Below the pieces are notes generated by a model. It saw nothing but the letters and a program-made list of their open reading frames with translations. It had not been told where the DNA came from and searched no databases. Positions 7,578 to 63,411 of a DNA stretch of 64,000 bases are shown here, piece by piece (position 1 is the stretch's first letter; each line of letters opens with the position of its first letter). Source of the DNA: an uncultured Acidobacteriota bacterium (lineage in GTDB: Bacteria; Acidobacteriota; Vicinamibacteria; Vicinamibacterales; SCN-69-37); NCBI GenBank assembly GCA_963738485.1, contig CAVTWK010000005.1, positions 388,690-452,689 of the forward strand, given 5' to 3'. Made by a program: the position numbers and the translations under genes.

Positions 7578-7648
7578 TCTAGAATCACCTCGGAGGTAAT
7601 TGCTACCAAGGTTGTCATCGTCGGCCCGACCACCTCCGAGGTCCTAGA
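7578..7648. promoter_or_regulatory. inverted repeat in divergent intergenic region (possible operator or structured leader)
   Basis: TCTAGAATCACCTCGGAGGT ...34 nt... ACCTCCGAGGTCCTAGA. It shares the ACCTC(C/G)GAGGT 11-mer with 35378 and 37901/37967. Confidence 0.35.
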
Positions 7649-9103: not shown

Positions 9104-9820
9104 TCAGGCCGGCCGGACGAGCATCTCCTCGACGATGACTCGGGCCGGGAGCGTGAGGCAGAAGAGGACACAGTCGGCGACGTCGTCTGGCTGCATCATC
9201 CGCTCGCGGGCCTCGGCTGAGGGTGGCTGCGGCCGTCGTTCCAGAAGGGGCGTATCGATGTCGCCGGGGAAGATGGCGCACGCGCGAATGCCGCGGCCGC
9301 GTTCCTCGGCGTTGATGCTCTGCGTCAGACCGGTCAGGCCGAACTTGCTCATCACGTAACCGGGACCGGACTTGGCCGAGGCGATCTTGCCGGCATCCGA
9401 GATGATGTTGACGATGGTACCCGCGCCGGCCGCGCGCATGTGCGGGAGGACGGCCTGGGCGCAGTAGTAGGCCCCGTGCAGGTTGGTGCCGATCATCGCG
9501 TGGTAGTCGTCGAGCGAGAGCACGTCGAGTGAACGGGCCGGGACGTTGGTGCCGGCCGCGTTGACGAGGGCGTCCACGCGGCCAAAGGCCGCGTGGACGT
9601 CCTCGGCGGCGCGCGCGACGGCGGCCGCGTCGGTGATGTCGCAGGGATATGCCCGCAGCTGGCCGGCCGGTCGGCCGGCCAGCGCAATCGTCTCCGCCAG
9701 TGCGTCGGCGCGTCGCCCGAAGAGGGCGACGCGCCAGCCGCGCTCGGCGAGTTTCAGGGCGACGGCGCGGCCGACGCCGCTGCCGGCGCCGGTGACGAGA
9801 GCAGTGTGGGACTCAGACAC
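9104..9820 (-). CDS. SDR-family oxidoreductase
   Basis: Rossmann motif TGAGSGVGRA, the NAAG motif, and catalytic YVMSK (YxxxK). Confidence 0.9.
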   Translation of the reverse strand: MSESHTALVTGAGSGVGRAVALKLAERGWRVALFGRRADALAETIALAGRPAGQLRAYPCDITDAAAVARAAEDVHAAFGRVDALVNAAGTNVPARSLDVLSLDDYHAMIGTNLHGAYYCAQAVLPHMRAAGAGTIVNIISDAGKIASAKSGPGYVMSKFGLTGLTQSINAEERGRGIRACAIFPGDIDTPLLERRPQPPSAEARERMMQPDDVADCVLFCLTLPARVIVEEMLVRPA

Positions 9821-9829
9821 GGGACGATG

Positions 9830-10175
9830 ATAAACGGGCTACGGGAAACAGCCTACGGGAGACGGGCTACGGCGGACGGACGACGGGAAACAGCCTACGG
9901 CCTACGGGAGACGGGCTACGTCAGACGGCCTACGGCCTACGGCAGACGGCCTACGGCCTACGGTAGACGGCAGCCCGCGCGACAGCAGACGGGCGACGAA
10001 GCAAGGTACACGCACAGGGGGCCGGCTCGTCGAGCCGGCCCCCTGTCGTTTCCGCTGTTCCGCTGTCGATGGCCGTAGCCTGTAGGCCGTGAGCCGTCGC
10101 CCGTGGCCCGTCTGCCGTAGGCCGTAGGCCGTCTGCCGTAGGCTGTAGCCCGTAGGCGGTCTGCCGTCTCCCGTC
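9830..10175. repeat. inverted pair of heptanucleotide arrays (ACGG-type then CCGT-type) around a GC hairpin
   Basis: 9833-9985 reads ctacggg aaacagc ctacggg agacggg ctacggc... 10066-10175 reads ccgtagc ctgtagg ccgtgag ccgtcgc ccgtggc ccgtctg... The central hairpin is CAGGGGGCCGGCTCG/CGAGCCGGCCCCCTG at 10015-10045. Confidence 0.9.
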
Positions 10176-13100
10176 CTACCGTCCCAGCCAGATGTCTTCG
10201 AGCACGTTGAACGTCTGTGTGCCCACTTCGCGGCCGGCGATCGCCAGTGAGACGCGATAGACGCCCACGCCGATCCCGCCTCCGCCGCCCCCACCGAAGC
10301 CGCCGCCTCCGCCGCCACGGCCGCCACCTCCGGCGCCCGCCGTGCACGACGTCGGCGTCGCCGGTGCGGCCGGTGTCGCCGCCGGCGCGGGCGCCGCAGC
10401 CTGGCCACGACCTCCGCCGGCGCCGCCGCCTGCGCGACCCCCGCCCCCGCCGCCCGCAGGGTCGCCGGCCAACGCCCACTGGAACCGGTTGAGACCGGCG
10501 TTGCCCGTGCCGACGCACGTGCGGACGGCCTGTCCGGTCGCTGTGTTCGTGATCGTCACCCGCACTTCACCAGGCGCCGCCGCCTTCAGGTAGTAGGCGA
10601 TCGCCGTGCCGCGCGGCGCGACTTCGCCTGACCACCACTTGTCACCCGGGATCTCGGTGACGTTGAGCCGGTCGGCCTTCCACAGCACGGCCTCGCGCGG
10701 CGCGAACAGGACGTTGTCCTTGGCTACGTTCTCCGCGGTCATCTGCTGCAGCGGGGAGATGTCGTCCAGAATCCACACGCCGCGCGAGTGCGTGCCGAGA
10801 ATCAGGTCGTTGTCGCGCGGATGCACGACCACCTCGTCGATGCGGCCCTGCGGCAGGTTCGGCATGAACGATTCCCACGTCTTGCCGTCGTCGAGCGAGA
10901 CGTAGAAACCGTACTCCGTCGGCGCGTAGAGCAGGTTGCGGTTCTTCGGGTCCTGCCTGATCGAGTTGACGTTGCCCTGCGGCAGGTTGCCGGAAACCGA
11001 CGTCCACGTCGTGCCGTAGTCGGTGGTCTTGAAGATGTACGGCTTGAAGTCGTTGTTCCGCTTGCCGTCGAGGGCGATGTACGCGGTGCCCGCGTCGTAC
11101 CAGGACGCCTCGAGGCCCGAGACGTAGGTCTCGTGGTTGACGCCGGGGATGTTCTTGCCGACCTCGGTGAACGTCAGCCCGTTGTCCTTGCTCACCTGGA
11201 TGTTGCCGTCGTCAGTGCCGGCCCAGACGATGCCCGGCAGGACGGGGGACTCGGCCACCTCGGTGATCGACCCGTACTCGTTGGCGACGTAGCCGTCGTG
11301 GCGCGAGAGGATGCAGGGCTTGCCCCGATTCTGCCCGCCGCCGCCACGTCCGCCGCCCCCGCAGGCAGGCAGCCCGTACGACTGTTCGAGAATCGTGCGC
11401 TGCGTGATGTCGATGCCCTTGCCGATGTTCTGCGACATCATCCAGGACTGTCCACGATCACGCGAGATGAACAGCTGACGCCCACCCACGATGACGGTGC
11501 TGGGATTGTGGGGCGACAGCCGAATCGGCGTGTTCCAGTTGAACTGCATGATGGCGTCGGCCGGCGGCGTGTTGATCACGTTGCCGCGCCCGCCGCCACC
11601 CTGTCCGCCGCCCCCACCGCCACCGCGCCCGGCGAGACTGGGCCGGATCGACTGCGTGACGCCGGTCGAGACGTCGTACCGGTTGATGTTGCCGTTCTGC
11701 GACTCGGTGTAGAACACGTTCGGGTTGGTCGGATCGACCTGCGTCTGGAATCCGTCGCCGCCGCCCACGCTGATCCAGTTCCACTGGTGGATGCCGCCCG
11801 TTCGCGTCGAACTCGGTCCGCACCACGACCCGTTGTCCTGCAGACCGGTGCAGACCCAGTAGGGCCGCCGCATGTCGTGCGAGACGTGGTAGGACAGCGC
11901 CACGCCCCACATGCGGATCGACTCCCACCGGAGGCCGCCGTCATAGGAGACGTCGATGCCGCCGTCGTTGCCGTACATCACGTGATTGCTGTTCTGCTGA
12001 CTGATCCAGATCGCGTGGTTGTCCACGTGGCCCTGCCCGACCAGTGTCGTGAACGTCTTGCCGCCGTCCACCGACTTGCGCGGGTTGACGCCACCGACGT
12101 AGACGACGTCGGCGTTGGTGGGATCGACCCGGATCTGGCTGTAGTACATCGGGCGCTGGTTCTCGTTGGACATGAACGTCCAGGTCTTGCCCTTGTCAAT
12201 CGACCGCCAGACGCCGCTCGACTGCGGATCGGGCGCCGCGGCGGCCGCGCCGCCAGCGCGGCCGCCCCCCGCCTGCCCGCCCGCCAAAGCACCACCCCCC
12301 GCTGCCGCTGGTGCGGCGGCGGGGGCATCGGGATCCGCCTGCACGGCCGCTGATTCCTTGTCGGGCGCCACTTCAATCTGCGCGTAGATCACGTTGGGGT
12401 TCGACCGCGAGATGTCCAGGCCGATGCGCCCCATGGTGCCGCGCGGCAGACCGGTGCCCGTGACCTTCTTCCAGGTCTTGCCGCCGTCGGTGCTCTGGTG
12501 GATCCCGCTGCCGGGACCTCCGCCGACGTAGCCCCACGCCGTGCGGCGATGCTCGTACATCGCGGCCCACAGGTTGTTCGGGTTCGACGGGTCAATGACC
12601 AGGTCGGTCGCGCCCGTGTCGGGCGTGACGAACAGCGTCTTGGTCCACGTCGTGCCGCCGTTGGTGGACATGAACACGCCGCGCTCGTCGTTCGGACCAT
12701 ACAGGTGGCCGTTGGCCGCGACCCAGACGATGTTCGGGTCCTTCGGGTGGACGACAATCCGCGAGATCGACTGCGTGTCCTTGAGGCCGATGTTGACGAA
12801 CGTGATGTCCTCGGCGTTGGCCGTCGAGGCGTTCGTGCTCTTCCAGACGCCGTTGCCGAAGGAACTCGACTGCCGGTTGTTGGGCTCACCCGTGCCGACG
12901 TAGAGGATGTTGGGGTCGGTCGGCGCGAGCGCCAGATCGCCGATCGAACTGGTGCCGTGGCTGTCGAAGATCGGGTCGTAGGTCGTGCCGTTGTTGACGG
13001 TCCGCCAGATGCCACTCACCGCGAACCCGACGAAGTAGGTGAATGGCGCCTTCTCGTTGACCGCGAAGTCGTCGATACGCCCGCCCTGTCCGGTGGGACC

Positions 13101-13283
13101 AATCTCCCGCCAACGGAATCCCTGGAGGTTGGGATTGGTCGGGGCGTTCAGCATCCGCGCGGCCGGCTGCGCGGCCGGTGCCTGGGTGCGGGCCATCAGC
13201 CCGGCGACGAACGGCGAGGCCAGCACGGCTGCCCCCGCGAGAAATGCCAATCTGCTTCGATGCCGCCTTCGATCCGTCCGCAT
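10176..13283 (-). CDS. VPS10/sortilin-like BNR (Asp-box) repeat beta-propeller protein with Gly-rich inserts
   Basis: 1035 aa with a signal peptide. Asp-box-like S.DGG.TW motifs repeat (STNGGTTWTK, STDGGKTWKK, SIDKGKTWTF, SVDGGKTFTT, SYDGGLRWES, SLDDGKTWES). The frame is intact. Confidence 0.85.
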   Translation of the reverse strand: MRTDRRRHRSRLAFLAGAAVLASPFVAGLMARTQAPAAQPAARMLNAPTNPNLQGFRWREIGPTGQGGRIDDFAVNEKAPFTYFVGFAVSGIWRTVNNGTTYDPIFDSHGTSSIGDLALAPTDPNILYVGTGEPNNRQSSSFGNGVWKSTNASTANAEDITFVNIGLKDTQSISRIVVHPKDPNIVWVAANGHLYGPNDERGVFMSTNGGTTWTKTLFVTPDTGATDLVIDPSNPNNLWAAMYEHRRTAWGYVGGGPGSGIHQSTDGGKTWKKVTGTGLPRGTMGRIGLDISRSNPNVIYAQIEVAPDKESAAVQADPDAPAAAPAAAGGGALAGGQAGGGRAGGAAAAAPDPQSSGVWRSIDKGKTWTFMSNENQRPMYYSQIRVDPTNADVVYVGGVNPRKSVDGGKTFTTLVGQGHVDNHAIWISQQNSNHVMYGNDGGIDVSYDGGLRWESIRMWGVALSYHVSHDMRRPYWVCTGLQDNGSWCGPSSTRTGGIHQWNWISVGGGDGFQTQVDPTNPNVFYTESQNGNINRYDVSTGVTQSIRPSLAGRGGGGGGGQGGGGRGNVINTPPADAIMQFNWNTPIRLSPHNPSTVIVGGRQLFISRDRGQSWMMSQNIGKGIDITQRTILEQSYGLPACGGGGRGGGGQNRGKPCILSRHDGYVANEYGSITEVAESPVLPGIVWAGTDDGNIQVSKDNGLTFTEVGKNIPGVNHETYVSGLEASWYDAGTAYIALDGKRNNDFKPYIFKTTDYGTTWTSVSGNLPQGNVNSIRQDPKNRNLLYAPTEYGFYVSLDDGKTWESFMPNLPQGRIDEVVVHPRDNDLILGTHSRGVWILDDISPLQQMTAENVAKDNVLFAPREAVLWKADRLNVTEIPGDKWWSGEVAPRGTAIAYYLKAAAPGEVRVTITNTATGQAVRTCVGTGNAGLNRFQWALAGDPAGGGGGGRAGGGAGGGRGQAAAPAPAATPAAPATPTSCTAGAGGGGRGGGGGGFGGGGGGGIGVGVYRVSLAIAGREVGTQTFNVLEDIWLGR

Positions 13284-13347
13284 ACACCTCTCCTTGACTC
13301 GGTCTTCCCGCTGAATTGGGGTGGGTGGCCGCTTAAGGGGCCCTCCG

Positions 13348-13374
13348 GGTGGGCTGATATTACATCAGCCCACC
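13348..13374. other. perfect 11-bp stem / 5-nt loop hairpin
   Basis: GGTGGGCTGAT attac ATCAGCCCACC, between the BNR-gene start and the heptamer arrays. Confidence 0.6.
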
Positions 13375-13583
13375 GGCTACGGCAGACAGACGACGGTCTA
13401 CGGGAGACGGTCTACGGCACGGGGCCGACAGCAGACAGGCGACGGCAGAACACGGGAGATGGCTGGCGACTGGCGGCCGCAGGCTGTTGCCGCTGTAGGC
13501 CGTGGGCTGTTGTCGCCCGTTTGCCGTCGCCCGTCCGCCGTAGCCTGTTGGCTGTTTGCTGTTGCCCGTTTGCCGTCTGCCGA
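13375..13583. repeat. inverted pair of heptanucleotide arrays
   Basis: 13375-13470 is ACGG-type (ctacggc agacaga cgacggt ctacggg agacggt ctacggc). 13490-13583 is CCGT-type (ccgctgt aggccgt gggctgt tgtcgcc cgtttgc cgtcgcc...). The pair abuts the M23 stop codon. Confidence 0.85.
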
Positions 13584-14956
13584 TTACTGTCCGCGCAGCT
13601 TCCGGATGATGCGGTCTTCGATCCAGTGCGAATCCCACCACTCGATGGGGTTGACCATCCGGCCGTTGACCAACATCGTGAAGTGGAGGTGGTCGCCGCC
13701 GGCCATGCCCGTCATGCCACTCCTCCCCAGTGTCTGGCCTTTCTCGACCATGTCTCCGACCTTCACCCCGATGCTCGAGAAGTGGGCGTAGAGCGATTGC
13801 ACGCCCATCCCGTGGTCCACGATCACGCAATTGCCGTAGATGCCGAGCTCTTCGGCCATGAGGACCTTACCTCGATTGGCCGCGACGACAGGCGTGTTGG
13901 CATAGGACGCGAGATCGAAGCCCAGATGGACCTGCTTGTCTACCTCCTTCCCCTGATAGAGGTAGGTGCGCTGGTCGGCGAACGCGGACTCGGCCGACGA
14001 GTTGGTGAACGGATGGAAGACGGCGCCCTGCCAGAGCATCTCGGGGGCCGTCTGCGTCGCGAAGGACGCGATCTTCGCCGCGTTCTTCTTCCGCAGGTCG
14101 CTGTTGATCGCGACGAACTGCTCGATGAGCGTGCCGGTGGGCTTGATCTCGGTGGTTCCCGCCAGAATCGCTGGCACCACGCGTTCGATCAGCTTGTCGG
14201 TGATCTCGATCCGGCTCTGCTTGAACGGCTTCGGGAAGGTGCGGTAGTCGAAGCTCGCGCGCGCGGTGTTGCCGGCCTCGTCCCGCGCGAACAGGTGCAT
14301 CGACGCCGTCGACGGGCTGGTCGTGCAGCAGCGCGAAGAAGGCCACGCGCAGCGTGGCATCGGACACGTCGATCCCGGGGACCGTGGCTCCGGCGACGGG
14401 GAATCCCGGGTACTCGACGTCACCGACGACCACCCCTGATTGCACATCCGCCGGCGAGACCCGGTAGACGACCATCTCGGCCCCGCCAAGGTTGACGTAG
14501 TGATGGGTGGAGTGCACCGACACCCGCGGGGGATCGAGCCGGACGACCACGTCGCGCGTCGTCGTTGACTCGATCTGGCGAAGCCCGTAAAGGACCGGTC
14601 GCGACGCGGTGACGATGAGGCGGCCGGGGCCGTTGGCCAGACCGGGGACCTGCTCGCGTCCCACGGGACGCGTCAGGGTGATGCGGTTGGGATGGGCCGG
14701 ATCGGTCAGTCCGGCCGTCGTCGCGCCTGCCAGGGAGAAGACCGGCGTGCGCGCTGCCGTTCTGCTCGAACGCAATGGTCAGTGCGGACACCGCGGCCCC
14801 AGGCGCCTCGACCCAGACTTCCACAGGGGTCGTGGTGCCGACGAAGCGTTCGGGTCTGGCCAGGGTGATCGCCGGAGGCGCCAGGAACCCGGCGCCGATG
14901 TACGTACCGAGGGCGGCGAGCAGGAGGACGACGAGCAGCACGACGAGCTTGCGCAT
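13584..14956 (-). pseudogene. M23-family metallopeptidase, frameshifted as assembled
   Basis: N-terminal anchor MRKLVVLLVVLLLAALGTYIGAG. C-terminal LytM motifs VIVDHGMGVQSLYAHFS and GMAGGDHLHFTMLVNG. Coding signal moves through three frames, with joins near 14760 and 14301. Confidence 0.8.
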
Positions 14957-16323: not shown

Positions 16324-16420
16324 CGACGGGCTACGGCAGACGGGCTACGGTAGACGGGAGACAGCCCACGGCCTACGGCCGACAGGCCCACGGCCCCCCG
16401 GCCACGATAACGGGGCGACG
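16324..16420. repeat. heptanucleotide array, ACGG-type, about 12 units
   Basis: gacgggc tacggca gacgggc tacggta gacggga gacagcc cacggcc tacggcc gacaggc ccacggc. It fills the gap between the convergent glgC and kinase stop codons. Confidence 0.8.
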
Positions 16421-24435: not shown

Positions 24436-24526
24436 ACAGAGCATACAGCCTACGGGAGACGGTCTACTGCCTGCGGTAGACCGTCTACAGCCTACCGTAG
24501 CCGGTAGCCCGTTGACCGTCTCCCGT
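24436..24526. repeat. short heptamer-family segment with internal hairpin
   Basis: cagcctacgggagacggtctac tgcctgcg gtagaccgtctacagcctaccgtagccggtagcccgttgaccgtctcccgtc. The stem is GAGACGGTCTAC/GTAGACCGTCT. Confidence 0.7.
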
Positions 24527-24919
24527 CTAACGCACTCGTCTGTCCGACTCGACGAGGATCACCGCGCCGGTGATCGGCAGCTTGATCAGCGCGCCGAGCG
24601 GGCCGAGGTTCAATGCGTCGCGCACCGTGCCGACGACGCGCACGTCGGCGCCACGGCGCGGCACGCCGCGTTCGGAGACGACCCAGATCTGCGCCGGATC
24701 GATCGCCACCCGGTAGGCGCCGCGATTGCCGACCGAGTAGCTGTCCACGACGCGGCCGCTGATCTGAACGTCGCTGTTCCGGTAGCGATACGGATCGTCG
24801 AGGACATGCGAGATGCGCCGGCTGGCGCAAGCCGTCGCGCCCAGCGCCACGAGGAACGCCAACGTGGTGAGACCGACCGCACGCCTGAAGGGCGAGGAGG
24901 CAATCGAAGGGGCTGACAT
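24527..24919 (-). CDS. small lipoprotein, hypothetical
   Basis: ATG 24919 gives MSAPSIASSPFRRAVGLTTLAFLVALGATAC, which is lipobox-like. The rest is beta-rich sequence, possibly OB-fold-like. Confidence 0.6.
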   Translation of the reverse strand: MSAPSIASSPFRRAVGLTTLAFLVALGATACASRRISHVLDDPYRYRNSDVQISGRVVDSYSVGNRGAYRVAIDPAQIWVVSERGVPRRGADVRVVGTVRDALNLGPLGALIKLPITGAVILVESDRRVR

Positions 24920-25027: not shown

Positions 25028-25465
25028 CGGGGACGTCGTGGACTTCTGCGACGCTCCGGGACTGCGGCGTGATTGCCGGGGTCTCCAGCGTCCGTGCAGC
25101 CCGTCGGCACCTCAAGTCTCTTTCACTCCCGCACTTCGGCGTCAATGCCAGCACTTGAGCGACAGTTCCCGCACCTCTGCGCGAACTCCAGCACTTCAGG
25201 CGCGGTCCCGGCCTCCAGCGTCAGTTTCGGGACCTGAGCGTCAGCCTGCACCTCAGCGTCAGGTCCAGCACTTCTGCGTCAGGACCAGCACTTCAGCGCC
25301 GGCCCCGGACTAGGGCGTCAGCCTGCACTTCACCGTCAGGACCAGCACATCAGCCGCGGTCCCGGACTTCAGCGTCAGCCCTGCACTTCACGTGCTTGTC
25401 AGGCCAGCACTTCGCGCGGAGCGCGAAGCACTTCGAGCCCTTTTCACCCAGCACTTCCCGCGTCA
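25028..25465. repeat. array of about 21 units at about 20-bp spacing, core (C)CNG(C/G)AC(T/C)TC(A)GCGTCAG
   Basis: ACTTC-type cores fall at about 25042, 25061, 25109, 25133, 25153, 25173, 25193, 25211, 25232, 25250, 25270, 25290, 25309, 25327, 25347, 25366, 25385, 25409, 25430 and 25454. Confidence 0.8.
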
Positions 25466-28330: not shown

Positions 28331-29030
28331 AACAGACGGCGGACAGCCTACGGTGGACGGCTCACGGACGACGGCTCACGGGCTACGGCGGACAGGCTAC
28401 CGCCGACGGCCTACGGGCCACGGCTCACAGGCTACGGCAGACAGACGACGGCTCACCAGCTACGGCCTACGGCAAACAGGCTACAGACGACGGACGACGG
28501 ACGACGGGGGACGGCAGACAGAACACGGCTCACCGGCTACGGACGACGGCCAACAGGCTACGGACGACCGCCTACGGCCTACGGCCCACAGATACGGACG
28601 ACGGACCACCGCAGACGGGCTACGGTGGACGATCGCGGCTCACTGGCTACTGCCTACGGCTCACGGGCTACCGCAAACAGGTTACAGACGACGGACGACG
28701 GGAGACCGCAGGCCGGCTCCGGTGGACAGCAAACGGCTCACGGGCGACGGCAGACGGACGACGGCTCACGGGCTACTGCCGACAGAACACGGCAGACAGG
28801 CTACGGACGACGACGGACGACGGGAGACAGCCTACGGCGGACGGCTCACGGGCTACTGCGGACAGCAGACGGCTCACGGGCTACTGCCTCACGGCAAACA
28901 GGCTTCGGACGACGGACGACGGACGAAGGACGACAGGCTACCGGGGACTACGGCAGACGGGCCACGGCGGACGGGCTACGGCCTACGGCACACAGGGTAC
29001 GGACGGGAGACAGACGACCTGCGGTTCACG
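28331..29030. repeat. heptanucleotide array, ACGGNNN orientation, about 100 units
   Basis: It parses in register as acggcgg acagcct acggtgg acggctc acggacg acggctc acgggct acggcgg... with only occasional 1-nt register slips. Confidence 0.9.
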
Positions 29031-29039
29031 GCATAGGTG

Positions 29040-29160
29040 TGGACCTGGACGTCAGCTCCGGGACTTGCGCGAGCGTAGCGAAGCTGCGGGACTTCAGCGT
29101 CAGTTCCGGGACTTCTGCGAAGCCTGAGAAGTGAGGCGAAGCCCCCGGGACTTCTGTCCC
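29040..29160. repeat. GGGACTTC-core repeat cluster (4 units)
   Basis: ctccgggacttgcgcgagc..., gctgcgggacttcagcgtcag, ttccgggacttctgcgaagcc, cccccgggacttctg. It lies directly beside the big heptamer array. Confidence 0.75.
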
Positions 29161-35211: not shown

Positions 35212-35301
35212 GCCACTATCATACGGTCCGATGTAACTGCCGAACGCGGTCACCTCGCCGTTGCCCTCGGCGTCAAGCGGGTCGCCCCCTGCGTCGATCT
35301 T

Positions 35302-35347
35302 GGGGTCAGACCGGGGTCAGACCATGGTCTGACCCCGGTCTGACCCC
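35302..35347. repeat. perfect 46-bp palindrome (2x GGGGTCAGACC, AT centre, 2x GGTCTGACCCC)
   Basis: ggggtcagaccggggtcagaccatggtctgaccccggtctgacccc, in the divergent hicB / ECF sigma intergenic region. Confidence 0.85.
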
Positions 35348-35417
35348 AGCCGGATGACAACCGCGGTTTCCCAATACCTCCGAGGTATTTGCCCGAGGGG
35401 TTACCATCGCCGCGACC

Positions 35418-36008: not shown

Positions 36009-37913
36009 CATCGCGGTCGCCCTCGCCGATGGACGGCCCATCGACTGGGCCTCCATCGACGCGCGTCCGCTCACCGAGAGCGAGCGCGGGATGGTCGCGC
36101 GCTTCCGCCTCATCGAGCGTGTCTTGCAGGCGCACATCGGGCCGGATGGGGAGCTGTCGGTCGATTTGCCCAGCGCCCTTGCGACCGCGGACCGCATCGC
36201 AGCCGTGGCCGGGTCGGACGAGGCGGTCGGTGCCACCTGGGGGCCCCTGACGATCCTGGAGCGCATCGGCCGAGGCACCTACGGCGATGTGTATCGCGCG
36301 CACGACCCGCGTCTCGACCGGGTGGTGGCGTTGAAGCTGCTCCGGCGTCGAGAGTCCGGCGGGGACGCGCGCGAATCGGCGGTGATCGAGGAAGGGCGGC
36401 TGCTCGCCCGCGTCCAGCATCCGAACGTCGTCACCGTCCACGGCGCGGAACGGATCGACGGGCGCGTCGGTCTGTGGATGGAGTTTCTCGAAGGCCACAC
36501 GCTCGCCGAGGAAGTGCGCCTGGGCGGACCGCGGTCGGCGCGCGCAATTGCCCGGATCGGCCGCGACCTGTGCAGCGCGCTCACGGCGGTGCACCAGGCT
36601 GGCCTGCTTCACCATGACGTGAAGGCACAGAACGTGATGCGGACGCAGGACGGACGCATCGTCCTGACCGACTTCGGCGCGGGTCACGATTCGCGTGGGA
36701 ACGGCCACGGCGCGGCACCGCAGCCGCTCACCGGCACACCCGCTTATCTGGCGCCCGAGGTCCTCGCGGGCCAGCCCGCGACGGCGCAGAGCGAGGTCTA
36801 CAGCGTCGGCGTGCTGCTGTACCACCTGGCGACCGGGACATTTCCCGTGCGTGGACGCAGCCTGCAGGAGTTTCGCGACGCGCATGCGAGTGGCGCCAAC
36901 GTCGAGTTGCTCGCGGCGCGCGCCGACATGCCGCCGGCGCTCGTCGCCGCGATCACGCGATGCCTGGCGCCGGCGCCGGCAGATCGGTTTCAGAACATGG
37001 ACGATCTCGCCGATGCGCTCGCTGCGGGGGTCGAGGTGCCGGCGGCGCACGGCGTCGCGGCGGCGGCGATCCTCGCACCGCGCCGCGCGCGATTCACCTG
37101 GCGCGCGGCGGGGATCGTGCTGGCGTCGGTTGGACTGGCCGGCGCCGCAGGCTGGGCGGCGTCCTACACGCAGCCCGAGATCTTCGAATCAAGGGCTTTG
37201 ATCTACGTCACGCCTCAGCAGGTGTCGCCGGTCTATGTCGGCGCAGAGGGGACGCTGAGGATCGCCGATCGTGTGAACAGCCATCCGCAACAGGATAATG
37301 AGCCGAACGAGATTGGAGATGTTGATCACGGAGCTCAAGCTGTACGAGCCCGAGATGAGCGGGCGGCTGATGGAGGACCGGGTTGAGCGAATGCGTGGCG
37401 AGGTGTCGATAGGGCCGCCCGAGCCGGATCCTGGAAAATCCGTCGACGAGCTCGTTGAGGTGCGCTACATCTCGTCGGATGCGCGCACGGCACAGAAGGT
37501 GACCGACCGTGTGGCCGATCTTGTGATCAACGAGAGCGCCCGCGATCGCGAGAATGCCACCGCGGGAACGGATCAGTTCCTGGAGGCGACCCTGGAGGAA
37601 CTGTCACGCCGCCTCTCAGAGTACGAACAGAAGCTGCGCGTGGCAGGTCGGGGGCGGTCTCCAGATCATGCTTCGAGACCACGAGGAACTGCAGGCGCGC
37701 TACAAGAAGATGTTCGATATGCGGGAGGAAGCGAGGACACGGGCCAATCTGGAACGACGCCAGCTCGGCTCGCAGTTCCGGCTGATCGATGCGGCGCGCC
37801 TGCCCACCACGCCGATCAGCCCGAACCGGCCGCTCTATGCCGGCGCCGGTGCGCTCGGCGGGCTGTTCCTCGGGCTGGGGATCGTCGCGGTGCGCCGACG
37901 ACCTCGGAGGTAA
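35983..37913 (+). pseudogene. Hanks-type Ser/Thr protein kinase fused via TM helix to a Wzz/PCP-like (chain-length-determinant-like) ectodomain; distal part frameshifted
   Basis: Kinase motifs GRGTYGDVYRA, VALK, HHDVKAQNVM, LTDFG and GTPAYLAPE. TM helix FTWRAAGIVLASVGLAGAAGWAA. In the same frame follows YTQPEIFESRALIYVTPQQVSPVYV. SRTRLEMLITELKLYEP... and the PCP C-terminal motif LERRQLGSQFRLIDAARLPTTPISPNRPLYAGAGALGGLFLGLGIVAV are recovered by frame changes near 37281 and 37650. Confidence 0.7.
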
Positions 37914-37985
37914 TTCCTACGAAAACTGTAAGGCCACGCCGCGGCCTTACAGTTTTCGTAGGAATTACCTCCGAGGTGGTTTTCA
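37901..37985 (+). terminator. perfect 35-bp-stem hairpin + GGTTTT between convergent stops (terminator-like; also a repeat-family member)
   Basis: ACCTCGGAGGTAATTCCTACGAAAACTGTAAGGCC acgccgc GGCCTTACAGTTTTCGTAGGAATTACCTCCGAGGT, then ggttttc. The TAA stop of the kinase-PCP gene (37911-37913) lies inside the left arm. Confidence 0.6.
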
Positions 37986-39168: not shown

Positions 39169-39265
39169 GTCGTGAGGACCTCGGCGAGGAGTCGGACACC
39201 GCATGTGCCCGCTCATAGGGATTCGCGCGGTCCTACGGGTTCGAAGCCACCGGGGTTACAGGGGG

Positions 39266-39503
39266 CTCCCGTCTCCCGTCGCCATAAGGTCGCCCGTTGG
39301 CGGTTGCTCGTGTAGCCCGTCGCCCGTGGGCTGTGGTCTGACCCTGGTCGTCCGTCGCCCGTTTGCGGTACCCGGCAGCCCGTCGTCCGTCGTCCGTCGT
39401 CGGTCGTGCGTGGGCCGCAGGCCGTCTCCCGTGGGCCGTCTTCCGTAGCCCGTCTGCCGTCTCCCGTCTCCCGTCCGTAACCACCCTCCGTCACCGCCCG
39501 TAG
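39266..39503. repeat. heptanucleotide array, CCGT-type, about 34 units
   Basis: ctcccgt ctcccgt ... gcccgtc gtccgtc gtccgtc gtcggtc gtgcgtg ggccgca ggccgtc tcccgtg ggccgtc ttccgta gcccgtc tgccgtc tcccgtc tcccgtc. Confidence 0.85.
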
Positions 39504-43810: not shown

Positions 43811-44265
43811 CGCCCGGGACCTGGCCGAAAGCACCGGGACTTCGCGCGGAGCCGGGCGGGGCGAGGCGAAGCCTCCGGGACTTGAGCGAGCGAAGCGAGC
43901 AGCCGGAACCTGGGCGAAGCACCGGGACTTCGCGCGAAGCGAAGCGAAGCCTCCGGGACTTCAACGAGCGCAGCGAGCGCCCGGAACCTGGGCGAGAGGC
44001 ACCGGGACTTCCTGCGGAGCCGGGCGAGGTGAGGCGAAGCCTCCGGGACTTCAACGAGCGCAGCGAGCGCCCGGAACCTGGGCGAGAGGCACCGGGACTT
44101 CCGTGCGGAGCCGGGCGAGGTGAGGCGGAGCCTCCGGGACTTCAACGAGCGCAGCGAGCACCCGGGACCTGGGCGAGAGGCGCCGGGACTTCCGTGCGGA
44201 GCGGGTTGGCGAGGCGAAGCCTCCCCGACTTCCGCGGTGCGGGACCGGCTTTCCGGCCTCGGGTT
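43810..44265. repeat. tandem repeat, about 90-bp unit x about 5
   Basis: The unit is GCCCGGAACCTGGGCGAGAG GCACCGGGACTTCCTGCGGAGCCGGGCGAGGTGAGGCGAA GCCTCCGGGACTTCAACGAGCGCAGCGAGC. CCGGRACCTGG anchors fall at about 43813, 43903, 43980, 44070 and 44161. Confidence 0.85.
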
Positions 44266-61758: not shown

Positions 61759-62685
61759 CTACCTGCTGCGGTCGTAGCTGTCAGCTTGTTCGTGCGCGTG
61801 GTAGGAGGACCGGACGAGCGGGCCCGACTCGACGTGGCCGAAGCCCAGGTCGAGACTGATGCGCTTGAGTTCGGCGAACTCCTCAGGCGTGTAGTACCGC
61901 GACATCGGCAGGTGCGCGACCGAGGGTCGCAGGTACTGCCCGATGGTGAGGATCTGGCAGTCCACCTGGCGGAGATCGCGCAGCACCTCGACGAGTTCCT
62001 CGAACGTCTCTCCGAGCCCGACCATCAAGCCCGTCTTGGTCGGGATCTCAGGGGCGTAGCGCCGCGCGCGGTCGAGCAGTTCCAGGCAGCGCGCGTAGCG
62101 GCCGCCGGGTCGCGCCTGCCGGTAGAGCCGCGGCACGGTCTCGGTATTGTGATTGAGCACATCCGGACGGGCGTCGAGCACCGCGTGCAGCGCGGCTTCG
62201 TGGCCCTGGAAATCCGGAATCAGGACTTCGACGCGGCACGCCGGCCGGCGGCTCTTGATGGCGCGGATGGTCTCGGCGAACACGCCCGCACCAAAGTCCT
62301 GCAGATCGTCCCGATCCACGGACGTGACGACCACGTACGCCAGTTCCATGGTCTCAACGGCCCGGGCCAGCTTGGCGGGCTCATCGAGGTCGAGCGCCTT
62401 CGGCGCCCCGTGCGTGACATTGCAGTAGCCGCAGGCGCGCGTGCAGACGTCGCCCATGATCATGAACGTCGCCGTGCCATGGTGCCAGCATTCGCCGATG
62501 TTCGGGCAGTGCGCTTCCTCACAGACCGTGTGCAGGTTCAGCTCACGCATCAGGCCGCGCAGATGCAGGTAGCCGGCCGAGCCGGGCGCCCGCACCTTGA
62601 GCCATTCCGGCTTGGGATCGCGCGAGAGCGCGTGGTCCTTCACGCGACGGCCACGGTGGAACTGCAGGGGCGCAACGACGGACAT
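61759..62685 (-). CDS. lipA: lipoyl synthase
   Basis: CEEAHCPNIGEC auxiliary cluster motif plus the radical-SAM motif CTRACGYC. ATG at 62685. Confidence 0.95.
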   Translation of the reverse strand: MSVVAPLQFHRGRRVKDHALSRDPKPEWLKVRAPGSAGYLHLRGLMRELNLHTVCEEAHCPNIGECWHHGTATFMIMGDVCTRACGYCNVTHGAPKALDLDEPAKLARAVETMELAYVVVTSVDRDDLQDFGAGVFAETIRAIKSRRPACRVEVLIPDFQGHEAALHAVLDARPDVLNHNTETVPRLYRQARPGGRYARCLELLDRARRYAPEIPTKTGLMVGLGETFEELVEVLRDLRQVDCQILTIGQYLRPSVAHLPMSRYYTPEEFAELKRISLDLGFGHVESGPLVRSSYHAHEQADSYDRSR

Positions 62686-62703
62686 GAACGTTACTATTAT
62701 CCC

Positions 62704-63411
62704 ATGTCCGCGCTGTCGTTCACCTGGCTGGGGCACTCGGCGTTCCTCATCACCCTGCCCACCGGGCAGCGGATGCTGACGGACCCCTGGCTCAGCAGTC
62801 CCACCTGTCCGCCGGCGTGGGCGAAGCCTGAGGCGCTCGCGCCCATCGATCTGATCCTGGTCTCACACGGCCACAGCGACCATGCCTCGGACGTGCCCCG
62901 GATTGCGCGCGCCACCGGAGCGCCGGTCGTCTGCCTCTTCGAACTCGGGCAGTTGTTCGCCGAGAAGGGGCTCCAGGACGTGCGCGACATGGGCAAGGGC
63001 GGCACACAGGAGATCGCCGGCATCCGGATCACCATGACCGATGCCGTGCACTCGGGGTCCACCGTCGAGGACGGCCGCATCGTCTACCTCGGGGGCGCCG
63101 CCGGGTATGTGATTCGCGCGCCGGGCACACCGACGATCTACTTCGCGGGCGACACCGCGCTCTTCGGCGACATGAAGGTCATCGGCGAGATCTACCGGCC
63201 CGAGATCGCGTTCCTGCCGATCGGCGATCACTACACGATGGGACCCGACACGGCGGCCATCGCGGCGCGCTGGCTCGGCGTGCGGCAGGTCGTGCCCATG
63301 CACTGGGGGACGTTCCCGGTGCTGCGCGGGACGCCAGCCGCGTTGCGCGAACACCTGACCGGATCGGGGATCGAGGTCCTGGACCTCGCGCCCGGAGACA
63401 CGACCGTCTGA
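62704..63411 (+). CDS. UPF0173-type metal-dependent hydrolase (metallo-beta-lactamase fold)
   Basis: MSALSFTWLGHSAFLI, the HGHSDH motif, and PMHWGTFP. Confidence 0.85.
   Translation: MSALSFTWLGHSAFLITLPTGQRMLTDPWLSSPTCPPAWAKPEALAPIDLILVSHGHSDHASDVPRIARATGAPVVCLFELGQLFAEKGLQDVRDMGKGGTQEIAGIRITMTDAVHSGSTVEDGRIVYLGGAAGYVIRAPGTPTIYFAGDTALFGDMKVIGEIYRPEIAFLPIGDHYTMGPDTAAIAARWLGVRQVVPMHWGTFPVLRGTPAALREHLTGSGIEVLDLAPGDTTV

Follow-up and report, generated by a model that had tools for sequence, protein, structure and literature searches.

A convergent pair of intergenic heptamer arrays behind an M23 metallopeptidase gene of a Vicinamibacterales-like acidobacterium

Introduction

Heptameric intergenic repeats have been on record, in cyanobacteria, since 1990. 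In many free-living bacteria, heptamers are the commonest class of long simple sequence repeats (SSRs, with units of 5–11 nt), for which polymerase slippage has been proposed as the origin (Mrazek et al. 2007, as summarised in PMC4679880). Dispersed intergenic heptamers have been described by Rehm et al. 2015, with the unit GGGAATC in Xanthomonas and GGGGA(C/T)T in Nostoc (PMC4692102). In Xanthomonas, 70–75 convergent inverted pairs of arrays capable of forming stem-loops are present per genome, the G-rich strand starting at most 50 bp from a stop codon and lying on the coding strand; transcription of the repeats is documented there, as are variation between species and under-representation between divergent genes (PMC4692102). 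Single arrays are likewise anchored at gene ends, no link to mobile elements was found and no function was assigned (PMC4692102). TAACTGA direct repeats have been reported from Beggiatoaceae, cyanobacteria and Bacteroidetes by MacGregor 2015, with one indirect repeat among 170 sets and a proposed role in translational regulation (PMC4679880). Here, we describe an element of this kind in a 64,000-nt stretch of acidobacterial DNA (the window; 68% G+C overall), to which all coordinates refer.

The element, an inverted pair of heptamer arrays at 13375–13583, occupies the spacer separating two minus-strand genes, an upstream gene for an M23 metallopeptidase and a downstream gene for a protein with BNR repeats. 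It is called P2 below, and two similar pairs of the window are called P1 (9839–10176) and P3 (24445–24526); L-numbers designate loci of relatives that were compared with the window. P2 is built from a repeat family dispersed over the window, is a recent gain, lacks unit-by-unit covariation between its arms and has an architecture that recurs with other units in distant relatives. Judging from the sequence, its most likely role would be that of a hairpin-type transcription terminator or insulator.

Structure of the array pair

The two arms of P2 face each other across a degenerate centre:

13375–13446, plus strand: left arm, about ten ACGG/ACAG-type heptamers (CTACGGC, AGACGGT etc.), A-rich and T-poor, placed by Tandem Repeats Finder (TRF) and core positions
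13447–13484, no strand assigned: centre, degenerate, the loop region of the long hairpin, without a perfect core hairpin
13485–13583, minus strand: right arm, CCGT/CTGT-type on the plus strand and ACGG-type on the coding minus strand, about 11–14 degenerate units

In the left arm, nine AC[GA]G cores lie in phase with 7-nt spacing over 13379–13445, and the units then fade up to about 13470 (AT skew +0.55 over 13375–13470). In the right arm, eight C[CT]GT cores span 13531–13590, TRF rows of period 7 and 14 cover 13512–13582, and degenerate units reach back to about 13485; this arm is T-rich and A-poor on the plus strand, with a composition of A3 C32 G33 T31. The match between units is only 67–86%. 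The in-phase cores and the TRF rows bear out, at about 13375–13470 and 13485–13583, the succession of ACGG-type and then CCGT-type units that the initial annotation of this stretch had proposed. Its claim that the right array ends exactly at the stop codon of the M23 gene is also correct: the last base of the array is 13583 and the TAA occupies 13586–13584 on the minus strand (plus-strand letters "tta"). The C-terminus encoded just before this stop, ...IRKLRGQ*, is common to the window and to L159, L161 and L162.

The repeat family in the window

The family has the unit NNACGGN (CTACGGC, AGACGGC, CGACGGG etc.), and about 150 units at seven window loci keep the four-nucleotide core while the three other positions are free. 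Five successive units, 5x(ACGG N3), occur 19 times in the window and 0.00 times in 100 shuffles, which excludes chance. Nine arrays are distributed over six intergenic regions, as three convergent pairs and three arrays of one orientation, with no divergent pair; within the window, none lies inside a called gene. Besides P2, the members are:

9839–9971: left arm of P1, 19 units
10014–10046: perfect central hairpin of P1, with a 15-bp stem
10072–10176: right arm of P1, 15 units, ending at the BNR stop codon TAG
24445–24470 and 24475–24526: arms of P3, which is short, convergent and flanked by two minus-strand genes; the pair extends up to the stop codon at 24527
16325–16400, plus strand: single ACGG-type array between convergent genes, 1 nt past the glgC stop codon
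28336–29002, plus strand: one-orientation ACGG-type array of 667 nt, about 95 units with several phase shifts
39262–39475, minus strand: array that fills the space between divergent genes; its plus-strand reading is CCGT-type

The likeness of P2 to the layout at 9830–10175, noticed earlier, is real, and the pair at 24436–24526 resembles P2 as well; the perfect hairpin of P1 is central in the pair, while that of P2 lies outside the left arm. The copy numbers of the two arms differ at every locus. The array at 28336–29002 fills most of the spacer from the start of a DUF7133/cytochrome c gene to the stop codon of a gene with a MutS domain. Each array has the 5' end of its ACGG strand 0–92 nt from a gene end, and the arrays at 10176, 13583, 16325 and 24526 touch stop codons (0–1 nt). 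Strand asymmetry in the family is one of A versus T, with a GC skew near zero (−0.15 to +0.20): long ACGG-type arrays have AT skews of +0.44 to +0.58 (+0.2 in the 26-nt arm at 24445–24470) and long CCGT-type arrays of −0.45 to −0.82 (−0.16 in the 52-nt arm at 24475–24526).

Close relatives

The closest M23 proteins, with 81–89% identity, are encoded on L159, L161 and L162, and the M23–BNR synteny is kept in all three. The spacer between the two genes is 125–142 nt long in these relatives and contains neither arrays nor a hairpin. In alignment A1, the window spacer is about 165 nt longer, the arrays lying between the stop codon and a conserved block upstream of the BNR gene. The absence of arrays and hairpin from syntenic relatives makes both features young, a recent gain of the window lineage. 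A1 shows no target-site duplication where the extra block begins and ends, in sequence that aligns poorly. Short GC hairpin-like sequences, recognised by eye, follow the M23 stop instead in L159 and L162. The relatives' junction holds CGTCGTC/CTACGTCG-like strings, which could have been the seed of the arrays. At a further locus (L160, 11430–11520; M23 identity 77%), a small hairpin precedes a long palindrome whose arms measure about 40 nt (GGGGGGAGATTTGCACAGGAGGGGGACGGGTCT..., by eye), which is another way to put a long hairpin after the M23 gene.

A search with the BNR protein gave 37 loci, the best of them in metagenome-assembled genomes of Vicinamibacterales/Acidobacteriota with 57–75% identity. 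ACGG arrays are present at none of these 37 BNR-ortholog loci, and exact-protein look-ups with the BNR protein and the product of a neighbouring SDR gene found no further contig.

The same architecture in distant relatives

Inverted pairs of arrays with 7–9-nt units unrelated to that of the window were found in relatives by TRF, most clearly after the stop codon of the BNR ortholog:

L003: AAGGCAG / CTTCTGC inverted arrays
L010: AGGGCAA / CCTTTGC inverted arrays
L005: CAAAGGGG-type inverted arrays
L007: ACGTGAAG-type inverted arrays
L008: GGCACTG-type inverted arrays
L001: short GGTTCCG hairpin
L011: 13 copies of the 8-mer GGGGTTCC facing 11 copies of GGAACCCC
L009: the 9-mer CGGGTTCGA facing GAACCCGTC
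L004 and L033: plain hairpins

The units of L003, L005, L007, L008 and L010 are 7–8-mers. In L009, a site resembling a canonical terminator (15-bp stem; T-rich tail, TTCCGTTTCG) is nested between the arrays, and the predicted fold of the region as a whole is a single long stem; a homologous core with the tail TTTCTTTTTG was recognised by eye in L011. In L005, an inverted 8-mer pair also lies between the stop codon of the gene upstream and the −10-like box of the BNR gene, in the same layout as P2. The recurrence of the inverted pair, pointed out at first for two places in the window, extends in this way to the BNR-ortholog stops of distant relatives, with different units.

Two or three different units are present on single contigs (L001, L011, L038, L044, L065 and L069). 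Among non-triplet arrays in 238 kb of protein-selected loci, periods 7, 8 and 9 are represented 17, 18 and 17 times, and periods 4, 5 and 10 once or twice each. The units GGTTCCG (7 nt, L001), GGGGTTCC (8 nt, L011) and CGGGTTCGA (9 nt, L009) have a common GGTTC core, so these arrays look homologous, with a change of period between related species. In nearly all close relatives with the BNR gene (L001, L003–L005, L007–L011 and L033), it is followed by a convergent gene and then another gene, which we provisionally take to encode an MBL-fold hydrolase and a lipA-like protein. In the window, the genes labelled in this way are 50 kb away, at 61771–63386, and the BNR gene is followed by the SDR gene; the BNR locus has thus been rearranged. 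L001 and L011 have heptamer arrays in the spacer between the MBL-fold- and lipA-labelled genes, which measures only about 20 nt in the window.

A scan of metagenomes for 5x(ACGG N3) returned 120 stretches on very diverse contigs (38–75% G+C), none of the 120 being related to the window. These contigs, together with other loci, formed a census of 163 loci for inverted pairs of 6–9-nt arrays, defined as neighbours in which one consensus unit is the reverse complement of the other with at most one mismatch. The census contains 47 inverted pairs and only four direct neighbours, a contrast that is biased by the merging of direct neighbours in TRF. In the 47 pairs, the lengths of the two arms are correlated (Spearman 0.52, p 1.6e-4). 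In 33 pairs the G-rich arm lies to the left and in six to the right (p 1.4e-5; 26:5 if each contig contributes a single pair), a bias that is independent of the strand read. At least nine pairs lie between convergent genes, at most twelve between co-directional and three between divergent genes, against a baseline of 49/131/51; these counts, made with a simple gene caller based on third-position G+C (GC3) that is noisy, misses small genes and leaves partners undetected, are suggestive only. The anchoring of single arrays outside the window, counted with the same caller, is 19:22 and uninformative. With three convergent and no divergent pairs in the window, correlated arms and a bias in orientation among the 47 pairs, the inverted arrangement is non-random, as the initial annotation had supposed.

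Folding and covariation

Predicted minimum free energies (MFE) are far below those of dinucleotide shuffles for all three pairs:

13340–13590, plus strand: MFE −150.3 kcal/mol, z −8.1
13340–13590, minus (coding) strand: MFE −126.8 kcal/mol, z −5.8
9825–10180, both strands: MFE −237/−245 kcal/mol, z −14.5
24436–24530: MFE −50.6 (minus)/−45 (plus) kcal/mol, z about −4.9

Because repeat arrays call for a null other than dinucleotide shuffles, three extra controls were run. Permuting the order of the heptamers within the arms left the energy unchanged (z −0.5/−0.4 for P2, +0.55/+0.66 for P1). Flipping one arm into direct orientation cost 35–90 kcal/mol. Unit-level Smith–Waterman alignment of the left arm with the reverse-complemented right arm gave no gain over shuffled unit order (p 0.37 and 1.0) and was no better than alignment with arrays of other loci. 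The arms pair because they belong to the same repeat family in opposite orientation, not because their units are mirrored. Of the expectations attached to this fold, the stability beyond dinucleotide shuffles (z −5 to −15) was confirmed, but permuted unit orders fold equally well, and the halves do not co-vary (permutation z −0.5 to +0.7). The proposal of a structured element rather than random microsatellite growth likewise survives in part: the inverted layout is recurrent and non-random, but there is no co-varying specific structure, which means that P2 is not a specific structured RNA. Rfam gave no match at gathering scores, and this candidate was rejected on the three counts of missing match, unchanged MFE upon permutation and non-significant mirror test.

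Other candidates were also discarded. The strand of function cannot be read from G·U asymmetry: the plus strand of P2 folds better (−150.3 versus −126.8 kcal/mol), but P1 and P3 have no consistent asymmetry, so no conclusion is drawn. G-quadruplex repeats as in Xanthomonas do not apply, as none of the 12 canonical motifs found in the window by regular expression (at least four tracts of three or more G, loops of 1–7 nt) overlaps an array. A Rho-loading insulator resembling a Rho utilisation (rut) site (C-rich, G-poor and unstructured), which the CCGT strand had suggested, is incompatible with arms in which C is about equal to G throughout. The unit is a 7-nt non-palindromic repeat, not the 20–40-nt imperfect palindrome of repetitive extragenic palindromic (REP) sequences and bacterial interspersed mosaic elements (BIMEs), which go with RAYT transposases. 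In a consensus scan of 9700–13700, no canonical intrinsic terminator was detected for the minus strand in the M23–BNR spacer, the only match there being a 6-bp plus-strand site at 13540–13555.

Possible roles

The arrays presumably expanded by replication slippage between the M23 stop codon and the BNR promoter or leader. They face each other with the A-rich, purine-rich arm first on either strand, so a transcript crossing the spacer can fold. The folded transcript would be a long, register-tolerant imperfect hairpin separating the M23 unit from the BNR promoter. Plain hairpins at the same or orthologous places in relatives do that job, which makes terminator/insulator the likeliest role. Hybrids of pyrimidine-rich RNA with purine-rich DNA are the weakest class, and the purine-first polarity would leave such a hybrid in the polymerase as the stem closes. 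On balance, we favour the view that P2 is an SSR-built terminator or insulator of the hairpin type, between the M23 unit and the BNR promoter, and hold it with modest confidence. Possibly, the pair also acts as a 3'-end protector or an RNase III site for transcripts leaving the M23 gene.

A broader version of this idea is doubtful: convergent pairs of 7–9-nt arrays may be a widespread, hitherto unrecognised and self-renewing bidirectional terminator/insulator of soil bacteria, in which slippage rebuilds the stem around or instead of an ordinary hairpin and the weak hybrid substitutes for the U-tract that these genomes often lack. It would explain why the architecture is conserved at the 3' end of the BNR gene despite turnover of unit and period, and also the correlation of arm lengths and the 33:6 bias.

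Several observations weigh against a terminator or insulator role for P2. The coding strand has no U-tract after the structure, and permutation of the units reveals no selection for a particular pairing register. Half of the six window loci of the family are one-orientation arrays (16325–16400, 28336–29002 and 39262–39475); these cannot form hairpins, so the repeats exist independently of any hairpin role, and the large array at 28336–29002 is left unexplained. The close relatives manage without arrays. One pair of L001 sits in a divergent promoter region. Finally, the M23 frame is broken twice relative to its orthologs: in tblastn, the 456-aa ortholog P0002 is split over frames −1, −2 and −3 (segments 14956–14753, 14775–14308 and 14375–13587, with breaks near 14753–14775 and 14308–14375). 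The gene may be a pseudogene, or the assembly may contain indel errors, which, if real, would also touch the apparent phase shifts of the arrays.

The main competitor, somewhat unlikely in our judgement, takes the pairs as a neutral by-product: the arrays would be slippage products, selfish or neutral, tolerated in non-coding DNA, and their hairpin potential would have no function. The convergent layout and the bias would then follow a mutational or anchoring rule, with arrays growing outward from gene ends with fixed polarity. Every array of the window has the 5' end of its ACGG strand abutting a gene end, which would alone yield convergent pairs, and single arrays without assignable function are anchored at gene ends in the genomes of Rehm et al. 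2015 as well (PMC4692102). The missing unit-level covariation, the three closest relatives without arrays, the one-orientation arrays of up to 667 nt and the free turnover of units and period (7–9) between lineages all fit such a by-product. It accounts less well for an architecture that recurs at one gene's 3' end in lineages without a common unit, for the nesting of the L009 arrays around a canonical terminator and for the correlated arm lengths; the strand-symmetric 33:6 bias is not given by pure slippage, and the crude anchoring test on single arrays outside the window (19:22, with noisy gene calls) lends the anchoring rule no support.

It is improbable that the arrays serve protein binding, with the ACGG core at 7-nt spacing as the site of a multimeric DNA- or RNA-binding protein that would load both strands in the manner of TRAP, HutP or a nucleoid-associated protein. 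Sites of the HutP type are spaced 7 nt apart, the core is kept next to three free positions throughout the family, and the dominance of one unit family in the window is what a trans-acting reader would favour. The unrelated units of the relatives, several per contig, would however need many co-evolving readers, arrays of 10–90 units far exceed known multimeric binding sites, starts, stops and the spaces between convergent genes all carry arrays, and no candidate protein was identified. For the TAACTGA repeats, binding of a post-transcriptional regulator has been proposed (MacGregor 2015, PMC4679880).

The reading as a mobile element, of the REP/BIME or miniature inverted-repeat transposable element (MITE) type, or as a non-coding RNA with a conserved structure is largely refuted: the fold is predicted to be very stable, the family is dispersed in the window and CTAC/GTAG tetranucleotides inside the units recall REP heads, but there is no Rfam match, covariation, conservation in relatives or evident target-site duplication (A1), the 7-nt unit is non-palindromic, arm copy numbers differ everywhere and NNACGGN arrays also occur singly.

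The paired arrays lie at terminator places, in some cases enclosing a canonical terminator; their polarity is fixed and their arms are matched in length, which makes termination a testable hypothesis. If it is true, array pairs could be used as terminator marks for annotating transcription units in high-GC soil bacteria; if it is false, the locus cleanly exemplifies SSR turnover that is fast and neutral. In both cases, P2 should not be listed as a structured RNA in genome scans.

The neighbouring genes and the hairpin at 13348–13374

The flanking genes and the region between P2 and the BNR start codon are arranged as follows:

13584–14956, minus strand: M23 metallopeptidase gene (Pfam PF01551, E 2.8e-29), with orthologs of about 455 aa
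13348–13358 and 13364–13374, no strand assigned: perfect hairpin with an 11-bp stem and a 5-nt loop, GGTGGGCTGAT/attac/ATCAGCCCACC, from an inverted-repeat search
13284–13347, minus strand: conserved BNR promoter-proximal/leader region, CCGGAGGGCC...GGCCACCCACCCCAATTCAGCG...GAGTCAAGGAGAGGTGT, nearly invariant in L159, L161 and L162
10176–13283, minus strand: BNR/Asp-box gene of the sortilin-Vps10 type, 1035 aa (Pfam PF15902 and PF02012), with 37 orthologous loci

The BNR gene starts with the ATG at 13283–13281, preceded by the Shine–Dalgarno sequence GGAGAG at 13293–13288, and ends with the TAG at 10178–10176. About 95 nt before the ATG are nearly invariant in alignment A1 (GTAATATCAGCsCACCCGGAGGGCC...GGCCACCCACCCCAATTCAGCG...GAGTCAAGGAGAGGTGTATG). 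Invariance over four lineages whose M23 proteins are only 81–89% identical suggests a functional promoter or 5' leader. A GGGCC...GGCC stem is possible within the block.

The hairpin at 13348–13374 has an RNA MFE of −23.6 kcal/mol on the minus and −22.3 kcal/mol on the plus strand (z about −5) and is not formed in L159, L161 and L162 (z +0.3 to −1.0 in the same folding test). On the minus strand, its loop and 3' arm read GTAATATCAGCCCACC and align with the conserved sequence upstream of the BNR gene in the relatives, the conserved half being GTAAT-ATCAGCCCACC. The 5' arm, GGTGGGCTGAT, is specific to the window and stands where the relatives have CGTTCGGTAG/GCGTTCAGTAG. The perfect hairpin announced by the initial annotation therefore exists, and alignment with the relatives' BNR upstream sequence places it in the promoter/leader region as predicted; the description as "unrelated" holds only in part, because the loop and the promoter-proximal arm are conserved BNR upstream sequence.

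By eye, the TAATAT within GTAATATCAGCCCACC was assigned as a putative −10-like element. In all distant relatives, a G[GA]TAG[TGA]AT box, also recognised by eye, is present 40–70 nt upstream of the BNR ATG, with the counterparts GGTAGTAATAT in the L159 group and GATGTAATAT in the window, and we infer that it is the −10 region of the BNR promoter. Read in this way, the hairpin would overlap the promoter and not be part of the mature BNR leader. The hairpin appears to be a separate recent feature, in which a new left arm would have become complementary to older promoter sequence.

The window has about 11 perfect hairpins whose stem is 11 bp or longer, where a first-order Markov model predicts fewer than one. 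The arm of the hairpin at 13348–13374 does not recur as a dispersed motif (20 matches with up to two mismatches, 19.9 expected), and an operator is unlikely, the left half-site being missing in all three close relatives.

Other repeats in the window

At 37901–37977, a perfect inverted repeat has 35 bp and a 7-nt loop, and its outer 15 nt are ACCTCGGAGGTAATT. This sequence recurs as a short palindrome, AATnACCTCsGAGGTnATT, in the intergenic stretches 7583–7601 and 35372–35390, and the same outer 15 nt end a different long palindrome upstream of the M23 gene in L162 (1240–1306). Motifs of this type have six matches versus 0.02 expected; they could be operator-like or be the termini of a small, palindromic mobile element. 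Adjoining one of the ACCTCsGAGGT motifs, a 22-bp perfect palindrome made of 11-mer GGTCAGACCCC units (2+2) is found at 35301–35348, just upstream of an open reading frame that starts near 35358/35418. A second repeat family with a CCGGGACTTC-like motif is present at 43944–44232, 29077–29123 and 25127–25390; it comprises a tandem repeat of 91 nt (3.2 copies, 93% identity), 13.6 copies of a 20-mer and, beside the large heptamer array, a short copy.

Comparison with known repeat systems

Like long SSRs and the short tandemly repeated repetitive (STRR) heptamers of cyanobacteria, the window arrays are intergenic and have a lineage-specific unit; in those surveys as summarised in PMC4679880 and PMC4692102, neither paired inverted arrays around terminators nor turnover of unit and period at orthologous sites is described. 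In the literature searched for such repeats, there is no mention of Acidobacteriota as hosts or of the unit NNACGGN. The TAACTGA repeats share with the window arrays the intergenic position, one heptamer unit per genome and a position relative to genes that depends on orientation, but their sets consist of 2–6 copies, almost always directly upstream of start codons and in one orientation.

REP sequences and BIMEs have alternating inverted copies and protect 3' ends. P2 resembles enterobacterial REP/BIME and bidirectional intrinsic terminators in hairpin potential on both strands and in that these, too, lie after stop codons and between convergent or co-directional genes. It is unlike them in having no coding-strand U-tract, a stem of tandem 7-mers with many registers and a unit that is not palindromic.

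The nearest likeness is to the heptamers of Xanthomonas and Nostoc: one 7-nt family is dispersed over intergenic regions, forms convergent pairs and varies at the same locus among relatives. Compared with GGGAATC, the window unit has a four-nucleotide core with GG instead of GGG and no canonical G-quadruplex motif; the window arrays are longer (up to about 95 units), their asymmetry is one of A versus T with a GC skew near zero, and the host is a Vicinamibacterales-like acidobacterium. Tandem 7-nt units beyond chance (TRF rows of period 7, 14 and 21), dispersal with a bias to non-coding DNA (as judged on the window), variation or absence at the same locus (L159, L161 and L162, and the 37 BNR-ortholog loci without ACGG arrays) and the layout described by Rehm et al. 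2015, here three convergent pairs and arrays abutting stop codons, are all found together. P2 is a further case of the intergenic heptameric long SSRs that Xanthomonas, cyanobacteria and others carry, and it adds Vicinamibacterales-like Acidobacteriota to the hosts of such repeats.

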